The notes under the pieces: model-generated
The model's input: only the letters and a program-made list of their open reading frames with translations
What the model was told of the DNA's origin: nothing
Database searches by the model: none
Position numbers and translations under genes: made by a program
In this document: piece after piece, positions 6,736-26,910 of the stretch
Position numbering within the stretch: position 1 is the first letter of the stretch
Layout: each line of letters starts with the position of its first letter
Source of the DNA: Bdellovibrionales bacterium
GTDB lineage: Bacteria > Pseudomonadota > Alphaproteobacteria > UBA9219
Length of the DNA: 64,000 nt
Assembly (NCBI GenBank): GCA_041649025.1
Contig: JBAZNY010000004.1
Coordinates: 26,705-90,704 of the forward strand
Direction of reading: 5' to 3'

Positions 6736-8123
6736 CGTTTGCCCGCTCCTTTTTCGGAAACGGGTTGAACCGTCTTTGGCTTTTTTGCCTCCTTGCGCGG
6801 CGCAGGCAAAAAAGCGCCCATGATCTGGCGTTTTGAAGAAACAAGTTCGCGCAGCGCCGCATTGACTTGATCGACACTGACGGTATTGATACGATCCGGC
6901 CATGCTTCAGCATCGGCAACGCTGTGTCCGGTAGTCAACGCCATGCCAAAGACATATCCGGGCATCATTAGCCCCTCACGAGCGAAAATAGCTGCGCGTT
7001 GGAAGCGTTGCTTAGCCTTTTCGACATCCGTCGCGTTTAGCCCTTTTTTTGCGGCCTCGTTTAGCGTTGAACGCAGAGCTTCTTTAAGTTTTTCATGAGA
7101 CTGCCCGGCGCGTAAAGATGCCGTTAGTGCAAACGTTGTTTCACCGCGCGCATCGGGGTCGTAACTTGCGTTAACCCCGCTGGCGATGTCCAATTCCTTC
7201 ACCAGTTTTTTGTACAAAATGCCGACTTCGCCGCCGTCCAAAACTTCGGTCAGGACTTCATACGCGTAAGCGGGGATATCCTTTTGCGTGGCATAGGACG
7301 GCGCTACAAAACGCCAAACAATTTCCGGTTGTTCAACACGCGCGTCCGTATACGTAAATTCCTTCTCTTGCGGTTGCGGCGCAGCCCCGAAGTCACGCGG
7401 AGGCAAAACATTGCGTTGGGGCACGCGGCCATAGGTGGCGGCCGCAAGGCTGATGACGTCTTCGACTTTCACATCCCCGGAAATGACGACGATGGCGTTG
7501 TTCGGCGCATAAGCAGCGTCGTAAAATTTGCGCACGTCCGACACGGAAAGCTTTTCGACATCCTTCATCAAGCCGACGATAGGCCGTCCATAAGGATAGT
7601 GCGGCATAAACTTGTGCTGAAGTTTTTCCATAAATATTCCTTCGGGACTGTTATCGGTGCGCTGCTGGCGTTCGCGAAGAATGACGCGCAGCTCCGGCTC
7701 TGCCGTTTCTTTTATCAGGCGCAGATTCTGCATCCTGTCCGCTTCCATCTGCATAATCATCGGCAGACGATCAACGGCGACTTTTTCATAATAGACGGTG
7801 TAATCGTAGGACGTAAAAGCGTTATCATCTCCGCCCTGCCCCGCAATGATTTTGCTGAATTCTCCCGGCGCGACGTTTTCCGTTCCGCGAAACATCAGGT
7901 GTTCGAGATAATGCGCAAGGCCCGTTTTGCCCGCGATTTCATCGGCAGCGCCGACTTTGTACCAGACCATCTGGCTGACGGCGGGCGCGAGGCTGTTGGG
8001 GACGACAACGACCTGCAAACCGTTCGAAAGCGTAAAATGAGAGGGATAAAATACGGCGGCACGTGCAGTCCCCATCATCGCAGCCATGAGCCAGATGATG
8101 AGAAGGGTTGTCCGTGCGAACAT
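6732..8123 (-). CDS. M16 family zinc peptidase, catalytic-type subunit (HxxEH)
   Basis: Signal peptide MFARTTLLIIWLMAAMMGTARA; inverted zinc motif GLAHYLEHLMFRGT; 463 aa. Confidence 0.88.
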   Translation of the reverse strand: MFARTTLLIIWLMAAMMGTARAAVFYPSHFTLSNGLQVVVVPNSLAPAVSQMVWYKVGAADEIAGKTGLAHYLEHLMFRGTENVAPGEFSKIIAGQGGDDNAFTSYDYTVYYEKVAVDRLPMIMQMEADRMQNLRLIKETAEPELRVILRERQQRTDNSPEGIFMEKLQHKFMPHYPYGRPIVGLMKDVEKLSVSDVRKFYDAAYAPNNAIVVISGDVKVEDVISLAAATYGRVPQRNVLPPRDFGAAPQPQEKEFTYTDARVEQPEIVWRFVAPSYATQKDIPAYAYEVLTEVLDGGEVGILYKKLVKELDIASGVNASYDPDARGETTFALTASLRAGQSHEKLKEALRSTLNEAAKKGLNATDVEKAKQRFQRAAIFAREGLMMPGYVFGMALTTGHSVADAEAWPDRINTVSVDQVNAALRELVSSKRQIMGAFLPAPRKEAKKPKTVQPVSEKGAGKR

Positions 8124-8665
8124 TATAGTCCCAGCCAGCCGCTCTTTTGCTTTTCGATAACGGGCGTGGCGCCGGATGTTACGGATTGATTGCCTTCTTT
8201 GGCTTTCTTGAGGCGCTCGGCCTCGGCAGCGGCATCGACGATTGTGCCACGCTCTTTATCGCCGTTCCAATTTATAAGCCGTTGAACAAGATGCGATGAG
8301 GCAACAACTTTTTGCGAGGATTCACGATCGACGATCTCGCGGATATTGGGATCGACCTTGGTCGCGCCCGAAGCTTCGAGAAGGGCCGTTTCCCCCTTTG
8401 AAGGAGCTTGAGCCTTTTTCGGAACTTTGGCGCCGAATAAAGCCTCGCTGGCCTGTTGATCGGTCTCGATGGCTTGGGGCCGCGCCACGCCCGGACGCGG
8501 AGGATGCAAGCCGTAATCCGGCGGCATCGACAAGGGCGGGCGTTCGACAACGGCAAATTCATCAGGAGGATTGCGCCCGAAACCTAAATCTTCGCGCAAT
8601 TCGCTGCACGCCGCCATGGAAATCGCGGCGACGCCAAGAAGAAAAAAGGAACGTGAGTGAGACAT
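8123..8665 (-). CDS. Lipoprotein of unknown function (DUF3035-like)
   Basis: MSHSRSFFLLGVAAISMAAC: lipobox with Cys; Pro/Ala-rich low-complexity body; stop overlaps the downstream M16 start (TAATG). Confidence 0.6.
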   Translation of the reverse strand: MSHSRSFFLLGVAAISMAACSELREDLGFGRNPPDEFAVVERPPLSMPPDYGLHPPRPGVARPQAIETDQQASEALFGAKVPKKAQAPSKGETALLEASGATKVDPNIREIVDRESSQKVVASSHLVQRLINWNGDKERGTIVDAAAEAERLKKAKEGNQSVTSGATPVIEKQKSGWLGL

Positions 8666-9306: not shown

Positions 9307-10035
9307 TTACGCAGCGCATTTTTCCATCTTTATTGATTTGTCGCTTTGTCGTGTGCTAGGTTCGATGTCGAACGTTTTCACTGCAATTCTAAGATTGTCT
9401 TTAAAACAAAATCCGCCAACGCCGTTTGACAGCAATTCCATAGCCTTCATTCGCATTCCCGGATGAATGTCCGCCGCCCCAGAGTCCTGATAAAGCGGCA
9501 CGTAGCCAGAAATTTCTTCTAACAAAAAGTTCCGTGATAATGATAGCCGCGCGGATCCAAATTCTTCGCCCCTCTTGAGACAACGCTGAGCAAACTCATT
9601 TAAATCATGGTCAACCGCTTCAGAAAACTCTTTGTTATTTTCATAAAGGGCACAAACTCGCTGAAAGACCTCCGGATAGCGCGGATGAGACAGCAGACTA
9701 TCCCATCGAACAACATCGATAAAAACATCAGAAGAGAAAACGTTAGCCTTCAACCATAAATCCCCGTCGTTTAGCGCCTTTTTATAAGCATCTTCTGGAG
9801 ACAGCCCAATAGACATTAAATTGTAACGCTGTATTGTATCGTGCAAACAAAGCGTAACATCGTTGAAATTCTGCATTACCCAATTAAGGATGCTTCTTGT
9901 GCGCGGATCAAAGGTTGGATTAGAGGGCACACTGATTTGCAGGCGCGCAGACGCATATCTCTGCCAGCCCATAGCATGACGCAAAATAATCTTATAATTC
10001 CCACGAGCAACAACTTGATTATTCGTATTTTTCAT
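9307..10035 (-). CDS. Uncharacterised 242-aa protein in AT-rich islet; downstream partner of the HTH protein
   Basis: AT-rich codon usage unlike flanking genes; start overlaps the upstream gene's 3' end by 17 nt (translational coupling); no recognisable catalytic motif. Weak Rx6H (RWDSLLSH) and weak CDPS-like IS..N..F and Y178 patterns were noted but are not convincing. Confidence 0.6.
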   Translation of the reverse strand: MKNTNNQVVARGNYKIILRHAMGWQRYASARLQISVPSNPTFDPRTRSILNWVMQNFNDVTLCLHDTIQRYNLMSIGLSPEDAYKKALNDGDLWLKANVFSSDVFIDVVRWDSLLSHPRYPEVFQRVCALYENNKEFSEAVDHDLNEFAQRCLKRGEEFGSARLSLSRNFLLEEISGYVPLYQDSGAADIHPGMRMKAMELLSNGVGGFCFKDNLRIAVKTFDIEPSTRQSDKSIKMEKCAA

Positions 10036-10657
10036 TTGTGTTAGATCCCTTTGGACTTTTCGCTTGTGACCAAACTAAATCAAAAAAATTCTTATTTGCT
10101 TGTGCAATAGCCTTGTCATGAACAACTATAACTTTCTGAAAATCTTCAGTCAGGTATGCGCATATATCATCAAAAAAAACCGAAGCTGCGTTTTGGTAAT
10201 AACGTGACGGGATTTGACGATACCAATCTAGCGGACCTCGAATATGGTTGTTGCCCTCTTTGATTAGCTTTTTATATTTTATGCCTTTCCTTACAATTCG
10301 CTTAAAAGCTTCATGTACTTCCTGAGGAGAAAGGGACTCATCTGCCATACAGACAAAAAATTCTTCTCCTTTTTGCAACTGATAATAGATTTCATCTAGC
10401 AATAGCGCATAGCAATTTGGGCCATCTATTTCTCGAACTTTATGGTCATAAAGACGAACACCTTGGTTTTCTGTAAATTCAATTCCCTTCTCTCTAAAAA
10501 CTTTCATAATATCCGCAATCGTTCCTTCCCTCGGTTGGACGGAGCCGTCTTCGATTTTGCTGATGCCTTGTTTGGTAAGACCCGCTGCATTGGCCAGATC
10601 GTCCTGGCTCATGTCCAGAAGGGCGCGCGCGGCGCGTATTTGTCTGCCTGTAATCAT
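10019..10657 (-). CDS. XRE-family helix-turn-helix protein with about 145-aa C-terminal domain of unknown function
   Basis: MITGRQIRAARALLDMSQDDLANAAGLTKQGISKIEDGSVQP...GIEF is a canonical XRE HTH; start set at the ATG at 10655-10657 with GGTGG upstream. The ORF-track N-terminal extension is rejected. Confidence 0.7.
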   Translation of the reverse strand: MITGRQIRAARALLDMSQDDLANAAGLTKQGISKIEDGSVQPREGTIADIMKVFREKGIEFTENQGVRLYDHKVREIDGPNCYALLLDEIYYQLQKGEEFFVCMADESLSPQEVHEAFKRIVRKGIKYKKLIKEGNNHIRGPLDWYRQIPSRYYQNAASVFFDDICAYLTEDFQKVIVVHDKAIAQANKNFFDLVWSQAKSPKGSNTNEKYE

Positions 10658-10854
10658 CCTAACCACCAAATCCAAAAAGTGTGCACTGCACCAAAAGCGT
10701 ATTAGGGATACTATATATATATGAAAGTAAATCAATGTCAATTTATAGTAGACAAAAGTCTCTTTTTCGGGTATAACTCATATATAGATAGGGCAATTAT
10801 ATTCAGGTTATTGATTTTAAAGGATTTTTTCGAATCTATTTTGGAGAAGACGGA

Positions 10855-11028
10855 ATGCCTGATTTTTATAAATATATGATGCGCTACGGCGAACACGGCG
10901 TTCAAGCTATTGTTGAAAACGTTGAGCGTAGCCAAGGCATCCGTCACGAAACACCGGTTCCGTTGGAACACCGTTGGAACCACGTCATGCAGGACACCCG
11001 ATCAGAACAATCCAGCATGGCGGCGTAA
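10855..11028 (+). CDS. Small hypothetical protein (57 aa), divergent from the HTH gene
   Basis: ATG preceded by GGAGAAGACGGA; divergent AT-rich promoter region 10658-10854; no homolog recognised. Confidence 0.3.
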   Translation: MPDFYKYMMRYGEHGVQAIVENVERSQGIRHETPVPLEHRWNHVMQDTRSEQSSMAA

Positions 11029-11115
11029 ATAGACTGCAAAAATAGGGGCAAGTTGAAGCCCCTTTTTGTTAACCGGAATTAAATTATTAAAACAAATTAA
11101 GCAACGCGAGACACT

Positions 11116-11355
11116 ATGGCAACGAAAACACCGCAATCAAACATCGACAGCACGGCTCCGATCAACAACCTTGAGCTCGCGTCGATTAAATCTCTTTTAG
11201 CCTATACCGCTTATGACAAGCATGTCAGCGAAGCCGTCGTCCGCGACGTGTTTTCTTCCCGCTTTGGCGTTAATGAAGTCGAAAAGCTGCCGCGTAAGTC
11301 ATTTGAAGATGCCATCCGCTTCTTGGTCGATATTCAGATCGAGATGATTCACTAA
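11116..11355 (+). CDS. Small hypothetical protein (79 aa)
   Basis: ORF with plausible helical sequence, follows the 57-aa ORF on the same strand; weak SD. Confidence 0.35.
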   Translation: MATKTPQSNIDSTAPINNLELASIKSLLAYTAYDKHVSEAVVRDVFSSRFGVNEVEKLPRKSFEDAIRFLVDIQIEMIH

Positions 11356-11414: not shown

Positions 11415-11490
11415 GGGCCTGTAGCTCAGTTGGGAGAGCGCAACAATGGCATTGTTGAGGTCGTCAGTTCGATCCTGATCAGGTCCACCA
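11415..11490 (+). tRNA. tRNA-Ala (anticodon GGC)
   Basis: Cloverleaf GGGCCUG..; G3:U70 alanine identity pair; anticodon loop AUGGCAU; TUCGAUC T-loop; encoded CCA. Confidence 0.93.
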
Positions 11491-11770
11491 CTTCTTTATT
11501 TCTGCGTTTTTCATGTTTGCGCGCTTGCGCCGCTTCGCGGCTCAGCGACGCGGGGGCATTGTTGAGGTCGTCAGTTCGATCCTGATCAGGTCCACCACTT
11601 CTTTATTTCTGCGTTTTTCATGTTTGCGCGCTTGCGCCGCTTCGCGGCTCAGCGACGCGGGGGCATTGTTGAGGTCGTCAGTTCGATCCTGATCAGGTCC
11701 ACCACTTCTTTATTTCTGCGTTTTTCATGTTTGCGCGCTTGCGCCGCTTCGCGGCTCAGCGACGCGGGGG
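11450..11770 (+). repeat. Tandem array, 3 x 107 bp: each unit is tRNA-Ala nt 36-76 (41 nt) plus 66 nt of downstream flank, with a truncated fourth start
   Basis: Units at 11450-11556, 11557-11663 and 11664-11770 are essentially identical; the first unit is the 3' part of the intact tRNA. Confidence 0.9.
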
Positions 11771-11967
11771 ATCGATCCTGTTCATATCGATTATTGCCCT
11801 TGGCCTCAAAAAGGGCTTCTTATCTCAATAAATCCAACAATCTTGTAGAGCGTCTTTGTTTCGGCTAACGTCCCCGCTTCCGTTTTCGGCAGAAAATGCC
11901 GGAAAACGGGTAAATAGGGCGTGATTGCCCTCGCGGCCTCTGATAAAAGGGCTGCGGTCAGGCTTTA

Positions 11968-12053
11968 GCGGGCGTGGCGGAACTGGTAGACGCGCTGGGT
12001 TTAGGTCCCAGTGACCAAAAGTCGTATGGGTTCAAGTCCCTTCGCCCGCACCA
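11968..12053 (+). tRNA. tRNA-Leu (anticodon UAG)
   Basis: Acceptor GCGGGCG/CGCCCGC; anticodon loop UUUAGGU; long variable arm; GTTCAAGTC T-loop; CCA. Confidence 0.9.
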
Positions 12054-12213
12054 GTTTACGCAAACGCATAGCGTGTGCGTAGACTGTCCGGCATAGCTTT
12101 AGCGAAGCAGGGCATGTAAATTAGAGTGTTTACTGTTTAGATAGAATAGGATTGCAAGCTACAGAAAGACACGGCTAGTTCAGGTTGAGCCTAACCGCTA
12201 CCCCGCCCCTAGC

Positions 12214-12234
12214 CCCTCCCTCAAGGGGAGGGGA
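12214..12234 (+). repeat. Hairpin repeat CCCCTCCC TCAA GGGGAGGGG (family 2), upstream of tig
   Basis: Perfect dyad; a second copy with covarying stem lies at 13743-13764. Confidence 0.6.
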
Positions 12235-13742: not shown

Positions 13743-13764
13743 CCTCTCCCTCAAGGGGAGAGGG
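13743..13764 (+). repeat. Hairpin repeat CCTCTCCC TCAA GGGGAGAGG (family 2 copy), downstream of tig; preceded by a dyad AAAATCTAGGGGCTT..AAGCCCAAGATTTT
   Basis: Same loop TCAA and stem geometry as 12214-12234, with compensatory C/T and G/A changes. Confidence 0.6.
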
Positions 13765-24603: not shown

Positions 24604-26910
24604 TTAAAATTTTGTGCCAAAGCTGAAGTGTATGTTTTGGAGCTTATCATAGGATTTATATAAAACAGGCTTGGCGTAATCCAAACGAATGGGACCAAAG
24701 GGCGAGTCCCACGTCAAGCCGACGCCGATGCTCAAGTGCAGGCTCTCGTCGTTGGTAATTGTGCTTCCCGCAATTTGAGTCTGGTCGGATTTTCCCAATA
24801 TGCCTGCATCGGAAAATATATGCGCTTTGAAACCAAATTCCGGAGATACCGGCACCGGCATCGACAAATCTACCGAACCGCGAACAAACCGCGTACCGCC
24901 CAAAGAATCCTGATAAACACTTGTCATGTCGCGAGAACCGATGCCCGCATATTCAAAACCACGCAGGTTGTCGCCGCCTAAATTGAAGCGTTCGTTAATC
25001 TTCGTCTCGCCGGTAAGCGCCCAAATTTGTCCTACTTCTGCCGTTCCGCTCAGAATCCAGTTATCGGTTATAGGATAGTATTGCGTGCCCCCAAGCTTTG
25101 CGCGCACCCACTTGCGTGACCCCCCAAGCCCCGCCACGTCGGTATCAAAGTGGGTTAGAAAACCCAAAGTCGGATTGAGCTTGCTGTCGCGCGTATCGTA
25201 AACGAGCGATTGGCCTATTGATGACGTTGTTGCCGTTCCCTCCTGATCTTTAACATAGAGCGACGCTGACGAAGGGACATTGGTAATTTCATCGGCATGG
25301 AAACTGTAATTCAGTTTCTGGCGTATTTCCTCGGATAACGGATAGCTCATACGCAACGTCGTTCCGGCGCTGTTAATGTCGTAAGAACTTAAATCCTGAT
25401 TATCGGTCCGCGTCGCAAATAAATCGACGCCTGCCGACAAGTTACGATCAAGAAAATAGGGTTCCGTAAAGCTGGTATCGATTTGCTTCGTGCGTCCGGA
25501 AACGGTAGCCCCCAAACGCAAATCCTGTCCCCGCCCCATGAAGTTATGCTGGCTGATGCTAAAGCTTCCCAAGGGGCCATCGGTCGATGAATAGCCCGCG
25601 CCGATCATAGCCTCGCCTGTCGATTTTTCCTTTAGATCAACTTTTATATTAGCGCGATCCGGTTGAGCCCCATCGACGGGGGTTACCTTAACCTCCGAGA
25701 AGAAACCTAGATCCTTTAACTTCTGTTCCGATTTGTGTACCGCCGAGCTGTTGTATGGGTCGTTTTCGGCCAACTGCATTTCTCGGCGAACAACTTTATC
25801 GATTGTGCTTGTATTGCCATTGATATCGATACGTCCGACATAAACTCGTTGACCTTGTTTAACGATATAGTTCAGGTCAACAACCCGCGTTTCTTTGCGG
25901 CGGTCTGCGTTAGGCATGACAGAAGCAAAGGCGTATTGGCGATCGCCCAAGGCCGCCATCAATTTCGTAACCGATTTTTCGATTCCGTCCGCGTTATAGC
26001 GTTGCCCTTCTTTTGTAAACAAATACTGGCTCAGTGTTTTGCTGTCCAACCCTTTGATTTCGCTTGTAACGGCAACTTTTCCGAATTTGTATCGAGGGCC
26101 TTCTTCAACCGAAAAGGTAACAAAGAAATCATCGTGACCCGGCGTTAACTCCGCAACGGCCGACAAAACACGAAAATCAACATATCCTTCGTTAAGATAA
26201 AATTTTCTCAATAACTCCTTATCGTAACCCATGCGGTCCGGATCGTAGTAATCGGACGAAGAGAAAACCCGCCACCACGCGCTTTCGCGCGTACTGATGG
26301 CATCGCGCAATTCACCCTCGGAGAAATGCTCGTTCCCGACAAACCTAATATTTCGGATGCCCGTGCGCACACCTTCGATGATTTCAAAAACAAGATCGAC
26401 GCGATTTTGTTCAAGCTTCACAATTTTGGGCTCGACAGTCGCGGCAAAACGTCCCGAGCGGCGATAGAGATCGAGAATTCTCTGAACATCGCGTTCAACG
26501 CGCGGAAGAGTATAAACCATGCGCGATTTAAGCTGGACTTCCTTTTCCAAATCCTCTTTAGAAATCGCGTCGTTGCCTTCGAAAGCCACGCGATTAAGAA
26601 TGGCGTTCTCTTCAACCTCGACGACCAACGTATTGGCCTGCATCGCAAGAGACACATCGGCAAAAAGCCCCGTCGCATAAAGCGCCTTTAAGGCAGCATC
26701 GAGCTTTTCGGGAGTCGCTTCGTCGCCTTTGGCAAGGCTCAGGTAAGAAATAACCGTTTCGGGCTCGAGGCGCTGAATACCCTCGACGCGGATGTCACCG
26801 ATTTTTGGAAACGACGGGGGCATAAAAGCTGCGGCTTGCCCCGCGCAAAGGCAAAACAAAACCCCGCATCCGAGAACCACCCGCAAATAACGCGCTAAAC
26901 GTCCGACCAT
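24604..26910 (-). CDS. bamA: Outer membrane protein assembly factor BamA
   Basis: 768 aa; signal peptide, POTRA repeats, C-terminal beta-barrel ending ...SFGTKF. Confidence 0.92.
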   Translation of the reverse strand: MVGRLARYLRVVLGCGVLFCLCAGQAAAFMPPSFPKIGDIRVEGIQRLEPETVISYLSLAKGDEATPEKLDAALKALYATGLFADVSLAMQANTLVVEVEENAILNRVAFEGNDAISKEDLEKEVQLKSRMVYTLPRVERDVQRILDLYRRSGRFAATVEPKIVKLEQNRVDLVFEIIEGVRTGIRNIRFVGNEHFSEGELRDAISTRESAWWRVFSSSDYYDPDRMGYDKELLRKFYLNEGYVDFRVLSAVAELTPGHDDFFVTFSVEEGPRYKFGKVAVTSEIKGLDSKTLSQYLFTKEGQRYNADGIEKSVTKLMAALGDRQYAFASVMPNADRRKETRVVDLNYIVKQGQRVYVGRIDINGNTSTIDKVVRREMQLAENDPYNSSAVHKSEQKLKDLGFFSEVKVTPVDGAQPDRANIKVDLKEKSTGEAMIGAGYSSTDGPLGSFSISQHNFMGRGQDLRLGATVSGRTKQIDTSFTEPYFLDRNLSAGVDLFATRTDNQDLSSYDINSAGTTLRMSYPLSEEIRQKLNYSFHADEITNVPSSASLYVKDQEGTATTSSIGQSLVYDTRDSKLNPTLGFLTHFDTDVAGLGGSRKWVRAKLGGTQYYPITDNWILSGTAEVGQIWALTGETKINERFNLGGDNLRGFEYAGIGSRDMTSVYQDSLGGTRFVRGSVDLSMPVPVSPEFGFKAHIFSDAGILGKSDQTQIAGSTITNDESLHLSIGVGLTWDSPFGPIRLDYAKPVLYKSYDKLQNIHFSFGTKF

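Follow-up and report, generated by a model that had tools for sequence, protein, structure and literature searches.

A variable tandem repeat that begins in the anticodon loop of a tRNA-Ala(GGC) gene

How does the 3' half of a tRNA gene come to stand three times in a row? The question is raised by a stretch of 64,000 nucleotides (positions 26,705 to 90,704 of contig JBAZNY010000004.1, assembly GCA_041649025.1, an alphaproteobacterium listed as Bdellovibrionales bacterium), referred to here as the window. In it a tRNA-Ala(GGC) gene runs directly into a tandem array, at 11448-11770, to which the gene contributes its own 3' end. A preliminary description of the locus, made from the letters alone, saw here the scars of serial integration and excision by tyrosine recombinases, with slippage at a recombination hotspot as the alternative. 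I propose that the array is a variable-number tandem repeat (VNTR), that is, a bacterial minisatellite, in which one old junction was followed by gain and loss of whole units through slippage or unequal exchange. I put the probability of this reading at roughly 0.7.

The array and its copy number

Tandem Repeats Finder reports the array as 3.0 copies at period 107, with 100% matches and 0 indels (score 646), and its length amounts to 3.02 perfect copies of a 107-bp unit. A repeat search of the window gives three 109-nt copies at 107-nt spacing, again with 100% identity throughout. Each unit is composed of nt 34-76 of the tRNA (43 nt, CCA encoded), starting with the anticodon at 11448, and 64 nt of 3' flank, called trailer F below. 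The three copies of F are identical to one another. The functional gene, found by both ARAGORN and Rfam, supplies the tRNA part of the first unit. Without nt 1-33, units 2 and 3 are called by these programs neither as tRNAs nor as members of any Rfam family; the intact gene is the only call within the array (coordinates are in Table 1). In all this the preliminary description was right: it had recognized three head-to-tail 107-bp units, an overlap of the first with the functional gene, and 5'-truncated pseudo-copies in the other two. It began the unit at nt 36 and gave it 66 nt of flank, which is the same repeat as nt 34 plus 64 nt, because the GG at the boundary is shared. That GG is the only microhomology at the junction. 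The edges read AAT^GGCATT on the left and GCGGG^GGATCG on the right (the caret marks the boundary), and the new junction within the array reads GACGCGGG^GGCATTG. Neither the 64-nt F nor the 43-nt tRNA part has a further copy in the 64-kb window.

Then there is the matter of whether so regular an array is real. All sequences compared here are short-read metagenome assemblies. Other assemblies of the same organism were found by exact-protein look-ups with trigger factor and with a 79-aa open reading frame (ORF) just 5' of the tRNA gene; a look-up with a neighboring 57-aa ORF gave no further strains. One assembly (JGI 3300037067, here L002) is 99.6% identical to the window over 1.9 kb and holds 2.0 units. 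Another (ENA ERZ27247363, made by megahit at k=141) contributes two contigs without a single difference from the window (100% identity); the first runs 141 nt into the array and stops exactly there, and the second starts exactly 141 nt before the array's end, so that the contig ends fall at array positions 141 and 183. Since 141-mers repeat at a 107-nt period only when there are at least three units, and not when there are two, the source of these contigs must have carried three or more. The repeat is real, and near-identical populations differ in how many units they have: 2 in L002, at least 3 in ERZ27247363, and 3 in the window. Short-read assemblies of this organism break at the array, which accounts for the breaks, and the number of units could serve as a strain marker.

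The second unit of L002 (L002:1759-1801) carries two substitutions, T50A and A52G, which change GTCAG to GACGG. These are the two positions on the 5' strand of the T-stem that vary between the tRNAs of the relatives considered below: the stem is GACGG/CCGTT in L174 and GTCGG/CCGAT in L176, and L182 shares GTCAG/CTGAT with the window. At both positions the L002 copy matches the tRNA of L174, and its 3' stem strand remains of the window type; G52 there faces T62 in a wobble pair, halfway between the G-C and the A-T state. The chance of such a coincidence is estimated at about 1e-4. A chimera created by k-mer assembly cannot explain the changes, because only a few bases separate them from each other and from a 3' strand of the window type. 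They suggest, without being fully explained by it, that the copy is an old one, a fossil that has been partly homogenized or converted.

The same place in other genomes

Relatives of the locus were reached from one side by homology to trigger factor (Tig) and from the other by homology to the 79-aa ORF. By Tig, the nearest genomes are metagenome-assembled genomes (MAGs) of uncultured Rhodospirillaceae or Alphaproteobacteria, with 71-85% Tig identity. The pairing of tRNA-Leu(TAG) with tig is kept in all of the relatives found this way, and what lies upstream of the pair differs, an adhesin-like ORF, tRNA-Ser, and tRNA-His being among the contents. Even in the closest genome (L005) nucleotide homology begins only at window position 11815, 45 nt past the array. 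Homologues of the 79-aa ORF have 59-85% identity, and tRNA-Ala(GGC) stands next to them wherever the contig reaches far enough, its position and sequence kept. The DNA 3' of tRNA-Ala(GGC) is different in every relative lineage. Because of this, and because one relative has tRNA fragments, spaced kilobases apart, that begin within the anticodon loop or shortly before it, the 3' side of the gene is a recombination hotspot, and a long-lived one in this uncultured alphaproteobacterial clade.

What is found there instead of the array? The sister species L174, whose contig belongs to the same MAG as L005 (GCA_964594935.1), has the same tRNA followed by a trailer homologous to F up to GCCGCTTCGCGG.AGCGA, a score reached by 0 of 500 shuffles. 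The trailer is present in a single copy, with no tandem repeat. Since F is homologous to this single-copy trailer, the unit must be native, local sequence. Further along, L174 has an FhaC/ShlB-like ORF 3' of tRNA-Ala (L174:5545-5913), and L005 has a large repeat protein resembling filamentous hemagglutinin (FHA) 5' of tRNA-Leu-tig (L005:62-2095). In view of the FHA-like ORF, the closest genome probably has a two-partner-secretion operon between its two tRNA genes, in the place where the window has the array.

A second lineage, L182/L183, has a tRNA-Ala identical to that of the window, and in L182 it is followed by a 412-nt insert with an 80-aa GIY-YIG ORF, then by the last ~28 nt of F, and then by GGCATTGTTGAGGTCGTCAG, which is tRNA nt 34-53. 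The 27 nt ACGCGGG^GGCATTGTTGAGGTCGTCAG match exactly the junction of trailer end and G34 inside the window's array. In this fragment (L182:1223-1283) the 7-nt T-loop TTCGATC has been swapped precisely for the 31 nt AAAAAAGTTTTGCTCGCATTCGCTCGCGGGC, both strands of the T-stem being kept, and the fragment ends with CTGATCAGGT at the end of the contig. The motif TTCGCTCGCGG within it recurs in a third lineage (L179, 8375-8392), and a shorter form, CCTTCGCTCGC, opens the cassette in L182. In L176/L178 a GIY-YIG ORF lies ~200 nt 3' of the tRNA, with neither F nor a tRNA fragment. The two GIY-YIG ORFs (L182:793-1222 and L176:5384-5830; 80 and ~80 aa) are homologous, with 47.5% identity and an E value of 6e-24, and both start ~150-200 nt 3' of tRNA-Ala(GGC). 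No such ORF occupies this site in the window, L174, L179, L184, or L186. The ORF and its surroundings may constitute a small mobile cassette that targets tRNA-Ala(GGC).

The third lineage, L179/L181, has unrelated genes after its tRNA-Ala. In L179 there follow a nearly exact copy of tRNA nt 29-71, 2.4 kb downstream of the gene (7345-7389), and a degenerate copy of nt 34-57, 3.5 kb downstream (8389-8419). The second of these stands just 3' of the recurring motif and is preceded by GCGGCGGG, the boundary reading GCGGCGGG^ATTG. The genes between the fragments encode proteins of 479 aa and 73 aa, both without Pfam hits, and a 2-phosphosulfolactate-phosphatase-like protein; no integrase was seen among the genes at the fragments. 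This arrangement looks like the accretion of old islands. The remaining lineages, L184/L185 and L186, have unrelated flanks with no tRNA fragments. Conservation of the 107-bp structure in all relatives, which the preliminary description had held would point to a regulatory or slippage origin, is thus not what is found: the repeat is not present in L174, L176, L184, or L186, where its sequence is either single copy or absent, and only L182 has the junction.

What made the array?

VNTR loci gain and lose units through slipped-strand mispairing or unequal recombination, a property put to use in typing by multiple-locus VNTR analysis (MLVA). They consist of head-to-tail, near-perfect, non-coding units of ~100 bp that vary in number from strain to strain and are found as a single copy in sister species. 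The array agrees with this description on every point that can be tested. Its copies are head to tail, free of spacers, and 100% identical at period 107; their number differs among close genomes; and the unit is ordinary local sequence, found once in L174. The array is unlike other VNTRs in that its unit overlaps a live tRNA gene from the anticodon loop onward, that its extra units are pseudo-halves of a tRNA, and that its founding junction appears to be older than the species. It adds a further example to a kind of feature already known, and one thing about it stays puzzling: the long persistence of the junction.

The model has two steps. First, a single old event would have joined the end of F to G34 of the anticodon loop. 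The resulting junction is present in the window and common to the L182 lineage; in L174 it has decayed or is missing. It must be old, because it is base-exact in L182, from which the window has diverged by ~16%, and an independent illegitimate event would not recreate it. Second, the 107-bp direct repeats would misalign during replication or sister-chromatid recombination, with the gain or loss of whole units, and gene conversion or exchange would hold the units identical to the live gene. For this step I draw on the general behavior of tandem repeats. Slippage or exchange fits the distribution of copies, with two as opposed to at least three in near-identical strains and one in the sister species. 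Old as the junction is, the units of the window show 100% identity, both among themselves and with the live gene, and this implies that exchange or conversion has occurred repeatedly. The substitutions in the second unit of L002 support both the age of the junction and this homogenization. Each unit contains a perfect 10-nt palindrome, CCTGATCAGG (11475-11484, 11582-11591, and 11689-11698), made up of the 3' strand of the T-stem and the start of the acceptor 3' strand. Copies of it in neighboring units can pair, and single-stranded DNA spanning two units folds better than its shuffles (z -2.9); both properties could favor misalignment. The tRNA gene suffers no damage at any point, because its 3' half is complete in unit 1, and the further units, pseudo-copies truncated at the 5' end, need have no function. 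In this way a short direct repeat beside a tRNA gene can become a minisatellite without harm to the gene. Slippage at a hotspot, the alternative in the preliminary description, is what the data favor.

Several observations pull the other way. A neutral 107-bp repeat should collapse fast, yet the junction appears to have outlasted ~16% divergence. Such persistence hints at selection, at regeneration by a site-specific process, or at movement of the locus from one lineage to another. The left edge of the repeat falls exactly in the 7-nt anticodon loop, a target that a random duplication beginning within the tRNA would hit only about 1 time in 10. The relationships among the genomes are themselves inconsistent as far as these sequences tell: upstream nucleotide identity (84.0% between window and L182, 81.6% between window and L174, 86.3% between L174 and L182) disagrees with the T-stem states of the tRNA, by which the window goes with L182. 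Finally, the exact count of 3 in the window is read off a short-read assembly.

Of the other explanations, the one that survives best keeps the second step and replaces the first, differing from the model above solely in what made the junction. An element inserted at the anticodon loop would have been reduced by decay to 64 nt, or else the 64 nt would be what remains of a small GIY-YIG cassette, and unequal exchange would then have made the array. The period would be that of arrays derived from elements with terminal direct repeats, such as the long terminal repeat (LTR) elements and TRIM elements (miniature retrotransposons with terminal repeats) of eukaryotes (PMC6947457, PMC3648361), in which it equals repeat plus spacer, here 43 + 64 = 107. 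Unlike those arrays, the present one is of far smaller scale, and the mobile origin of its founding pair is only conjectured. The accretion of att-flanked remnants (cis-mobilizable elements, or CIMEs; att, attachment site) in streptococci offers a further comparison. That the boundary is at nt 34 speaks for an inserted element, as do the hotspot itself, where fragments in L179 begin at nt 29 and nt 34, the similar G-rich end that precedes the degenerate fragment there, and the position of the cassette in L182, exactly between gene and fragment. There is also a weak resemblance of F (GCGTTTTTCATG) to the 3' end of the GIY-YIG ORF.

One more point might favor it. Just 3' of the array is a possible remnant of a tRNA 3' end, followed 2 nt later by a terminator-like hairpin, and tRNA-Ala genes of other taxa are typically followed by such a hairpin arrangement. 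The preliminary description had seen in this remnant the degenerate start of a fourth unit. The sequence does exist, TCGATCCTGTTCA at 11772-11784 matching the tRNA T-loop region at 12 of 13 positions. It is out of register, however, starting 89 nt rather than 107 nt after the preceding copy, and its significance is marginal (p ~0.02 when the local alignment score is compared with those of shuffles and of real windows; p ~0.12 for the corresponding part of L174). The ungapped 28-mer at 11766-11793 has 18 matches of 28, and one other non-tRNA site in 128 kb does as well. The remnant is either an old, decayed fragment or chance. Slippage between the T-loop TCGATCCTG and the same 9-mer 3' of the array was considered as a separate source of the repeat and rejected, since it predicts a period of 89 nt, not 107. 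Apart from the marginal remnant, an inserted element must contend with the fact that in L174 too F directly adjoins the tRNA and no intact repeat lies farther downstream, with the lack of an integrase in any fetched locus of this clade, and with the near-complete deletion it requires. I regard it as unlikely, though it deserves to be kept in mind: the first junction may have been an illegitimate duplication of native sequence at the 2-nt GG or an old duplication of the integrase type.

A more radical view is that the junction is made or maintained by a site-specific process, perhaps one tied to the GIY-YIG cassette, or that the fragments are kept by selection. A small element without an integrase would repeatedly target the loops of tRNA-Ala(GGC) and duplicate its 3' part. 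One candidate would be the ~430-nt GIY-YIG cassette, which in L182 lies exactly between tRNA and fragment and in L176 comes directly after the tRNA. The array in the window would then consist of target sites, empty or decayed, in a row. On the other form of this view, selection would keep the array for its use in processing or as a landing pad that acts as a decoy. The view is compatible with a junction shared by two diverged lineages, with the loop-precise swap of the T-loop in L182, and with the similar G-rich end in L179. Even so, I consider it improbable.

What, then, of serial integration, in which each half-tRNA is the scar of a separate tyrosine-recombinase event? The resemblance to att duplications made by tyrosine integrases (Reiter 1989; Williams 2002; PMC4383910; PMC9897764) is considerable: an intact tRNA gene, exact copies of its nt 34-76 in the same orientation (+) at 11555 and 11662, and a hypervariable locus. 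The fragments start at G34, in the 7-nt anticodon loop, which is a standard crossover subsite for these enzymes (PMC4383910), and to this extent the att-like edge was correctly perceived in the preliminary description. Relatives, for their part, offer the hotspot and the kb-spaced fragments of L179. Islander lists 2083 islands with an anticodon-centered site (PMC4383910). It also says what an island should have: a tDNA, a correctly oriented displaced fragment, an integrase, and an interval of island size; a tandem array is called only when every island in it comes with a fragment and an integrase of its own (PMC4383910).

It is here that the resemblance ends. Separate events give different flanks, and in place of kilobases of foreign DNA with differing flanks the array has the same 64-mer three times, homologous moreover to the native trailer of L174. 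The 64-nt interval leaves no room for an element, and no PF00589 gene lies between the gene and its fragments. No Pfam match to Phage_integrase occurs within 6 kb on either side (by the Pfam marks on L001 and L003) or in the 20 window ORFs scanned, which include all those of ~290-460 aa without a prior Pfam assignment, so that the cognate integrase expected by the preliminary description did not turn up there. Nor was an attP partner found. In IMG/VR neither the tRNA 3' end nor the junction had an exact match, and BLAST of the unit against phages and plasmids gave only an unrelated phage tRNA-Phe, in collections that may lack the elements of this uncultured clade; a metagenome scan with a 25-nt pattern from the flank also gave 0 matches, in a collection evidently without this species, although L002 is itself a JGI contig.

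What a real att pair looks like is seen in a positive control. A metagenome scan with the 28-nt 3' end of the tRNA found mostly tRNA-Ala(CGC) genes of other taxa. One contig (L130:169-5515), whose tRNA-Ala has the same 28-nt 3' end as that of the window, has the full tRNA-Ala(CGC) gene, a 5.2-kb element, and then a truncated copy from the anticodon loop, with flanks that differ. Among the products of the element are a tyrosine integrase of 402 aa (Phage_integrase, 53 bits), a resolvase of the serine type, and an additional signal peptidase II from an lspA-like gene. L130 is a genuine att pair, and it does show that an integrase exists for a tRNA-Ala with this 3' end. Truncated copies, which start at nt 32/33 in these metagenomic tRNA-Ala(CGC) genes, were found in ~19 other contigs; copies related to that of L130 recur in freshwater metagenome contigs (L090, L106, L115, L149, and L161). 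The array in the window is not an att array, since it lacks the integrase, the interval, and the differing flanks. Serial integration is, on the sequence comparison, largely refuted by the identical flanks, and I consider it very improbable. Head-to-tail tRNA 3' fragments are by themselves not evidence of islands, and island finders and tRNA annotators should require differing flanks and an integrase.

Selection for the array as a working module would explain why its junction persists in two lineages ~16% diverged and why its units are perfectly identical. The truncated copies and trailer might be kept as a module for 3' processing or termination of tRNA-Ala, as decoy landing sites to the benefit of the live gene, or as a source of RNA resembling tRNA halves. 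Because the first terminator-like hairpin comes 3' of the array, the extra units are probably within the tRNA-Ala trailer transcript, if that hairpin functions as its form suggests. Against selection are the absence of the repeat from four of the relatives (L174, L176, L184, and L186), the variation of copy number between near-identical strains, the broken T-stem of copy 2 in L002, and the replaced T-loop in L182. Folded as RNA, neither the single unit nor the whole array stands out (z -1.4 and -1.9), and Rfam matched only tRNAs among the array sequences. Such a module must be thought most improbable. As for coding, the short ORFs that cross the array were rejected as genes, their frame shifting with each unit (107 = 3 x 35 + 2). 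The last possibility, an assembly artifact that collapsed or inflated a repeat, would suit data drawn entirely from short reads and a count of 3 not backed by reads, but it can be dismissed in the face of two or more units in three independent datasets, a copy in L002 marked by single-nucleotide changes that no k-mer chimera can make, and k141 contigs that end exactly where a repeat of at least three copies predicts.

Neighbors of the array

The preliminary description also linked the array to an adjoining AT-rich islet. The islet exists (~9400-11200, with a G+C content of 0.37-0.45 compared to 0.50-0.57 for most of the flanking DNA), but it lies 5' of tRNA-Ala, the wrong side for an island at the 3' end of a tRNA gene, and the repeat search of the window found no direct repeats that bracket it. 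Upstream of the array the gene order is M16 peptidases, DUF3035, and lspA (-), a CDPS-like gene (-), HTH_3 (-), the 57-aa and 79-aa ORFs (+), and tRNA-Ala. A block of M16, DUF3035, lspA, a variable gene or none, HTH_3, the 57-aa and 79-aa ORFs, and tRNA-Ala(GGC) is conserved in L174, L176, and L179-L181. Shorter contigs hold part of it: the 57/79-aa and tRNA portion in L182 and L184, and the 79-aa ORF and tRNA in L186. Because of this conservation the tRNA gene and most of the islet must be native, which speaks both against the proposed link and against serial integration.

Table 1. Features at and around the tRNA-Ala(GGC) array, in window coordinates
Feature	Position	Strand	Remarks
CDPS-like (cyclodipeptide-synthase-like) gene	9307-10035	-	Pfam CDPS, 31.7 bits (cut-off 27)
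HTH_3 regulator	10019-10741	-	
79-aa ORF directly 5' of tRNA-Ala	11116-11355	+	From ORF list; anchor for the locus in relatives
tRNA-Ala(GGC), functional	11415-11490	+	ARAGORN; Rfam tRNA, 59.8 bits; nt 34-76 open unit 1
Repeat unit 1	11448-11554	+	tRNA nt 34-76 (11448-11490) and F (11491-11554)
Repeat unit 2	11555-11661	+	5'-truncated tRNA copy (11555-11597) and F copy (11598-11661); 100% identical to unit 1
Repeat unit 3	11662-11768	+	5'-truncated tRNA copy (11662-11704) and F copy (11705-11768); 100% identical; missing from L002
Possible tRNA remnant	11769-11793	+	GG in common with unit start, then weak T-arm/acceptor-like sequence TCGATCCTGTTCA; 18 nt off register
First terminator-like hairpin 3' of tRNA-Ala	11796-11826	+	GCCCTT-loop-AAGGGC, then TTCTTATCTC; weak consensus match and direct reading
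tRNA-Leu(TAG) gene and conserved upstream region	11815-12053	+	Homology with L005 resumes at 11815

Three smaller observations concern these neighbors. The CDPS-like gene fills the sole variable slot of the conserved block, between lspA and the HTH gene; in relatives the slot holds a 266-aa protein, or a His_Phos_1 protein with a 275-aa protein, or nothing. CDPS enzymes use aminoacyl-tRNAs. Within the 57-aa ORF there is a second repeat, the 11-nt unit CCGTTGGAACA in 1.9 copies (10960-10980). Because it is conserved in L002, L174, and L182, it is part of the coding sequence and not a variable repeat. On the other side of the array come tRNA-Leu(TAG), the gene itself at 11968-12053, and then tig, dsbB, flgE, and flgK. 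A GC-rich palindrome, CCCCTCCCTCAAGGGGAGGGG, stands on both sides of tig (12213-12233 and 13743-13763, the second copy with 2 mismatches). The first copy lies in the ~165 nt between tRNA-Leu and tig that are missing from L005, and it has a weak, sub-threshold match to the Rfam entry 'CRISPR-DR57'. The palindrome is probably an element of the repetitive extragenic palindromic (REP) kind.

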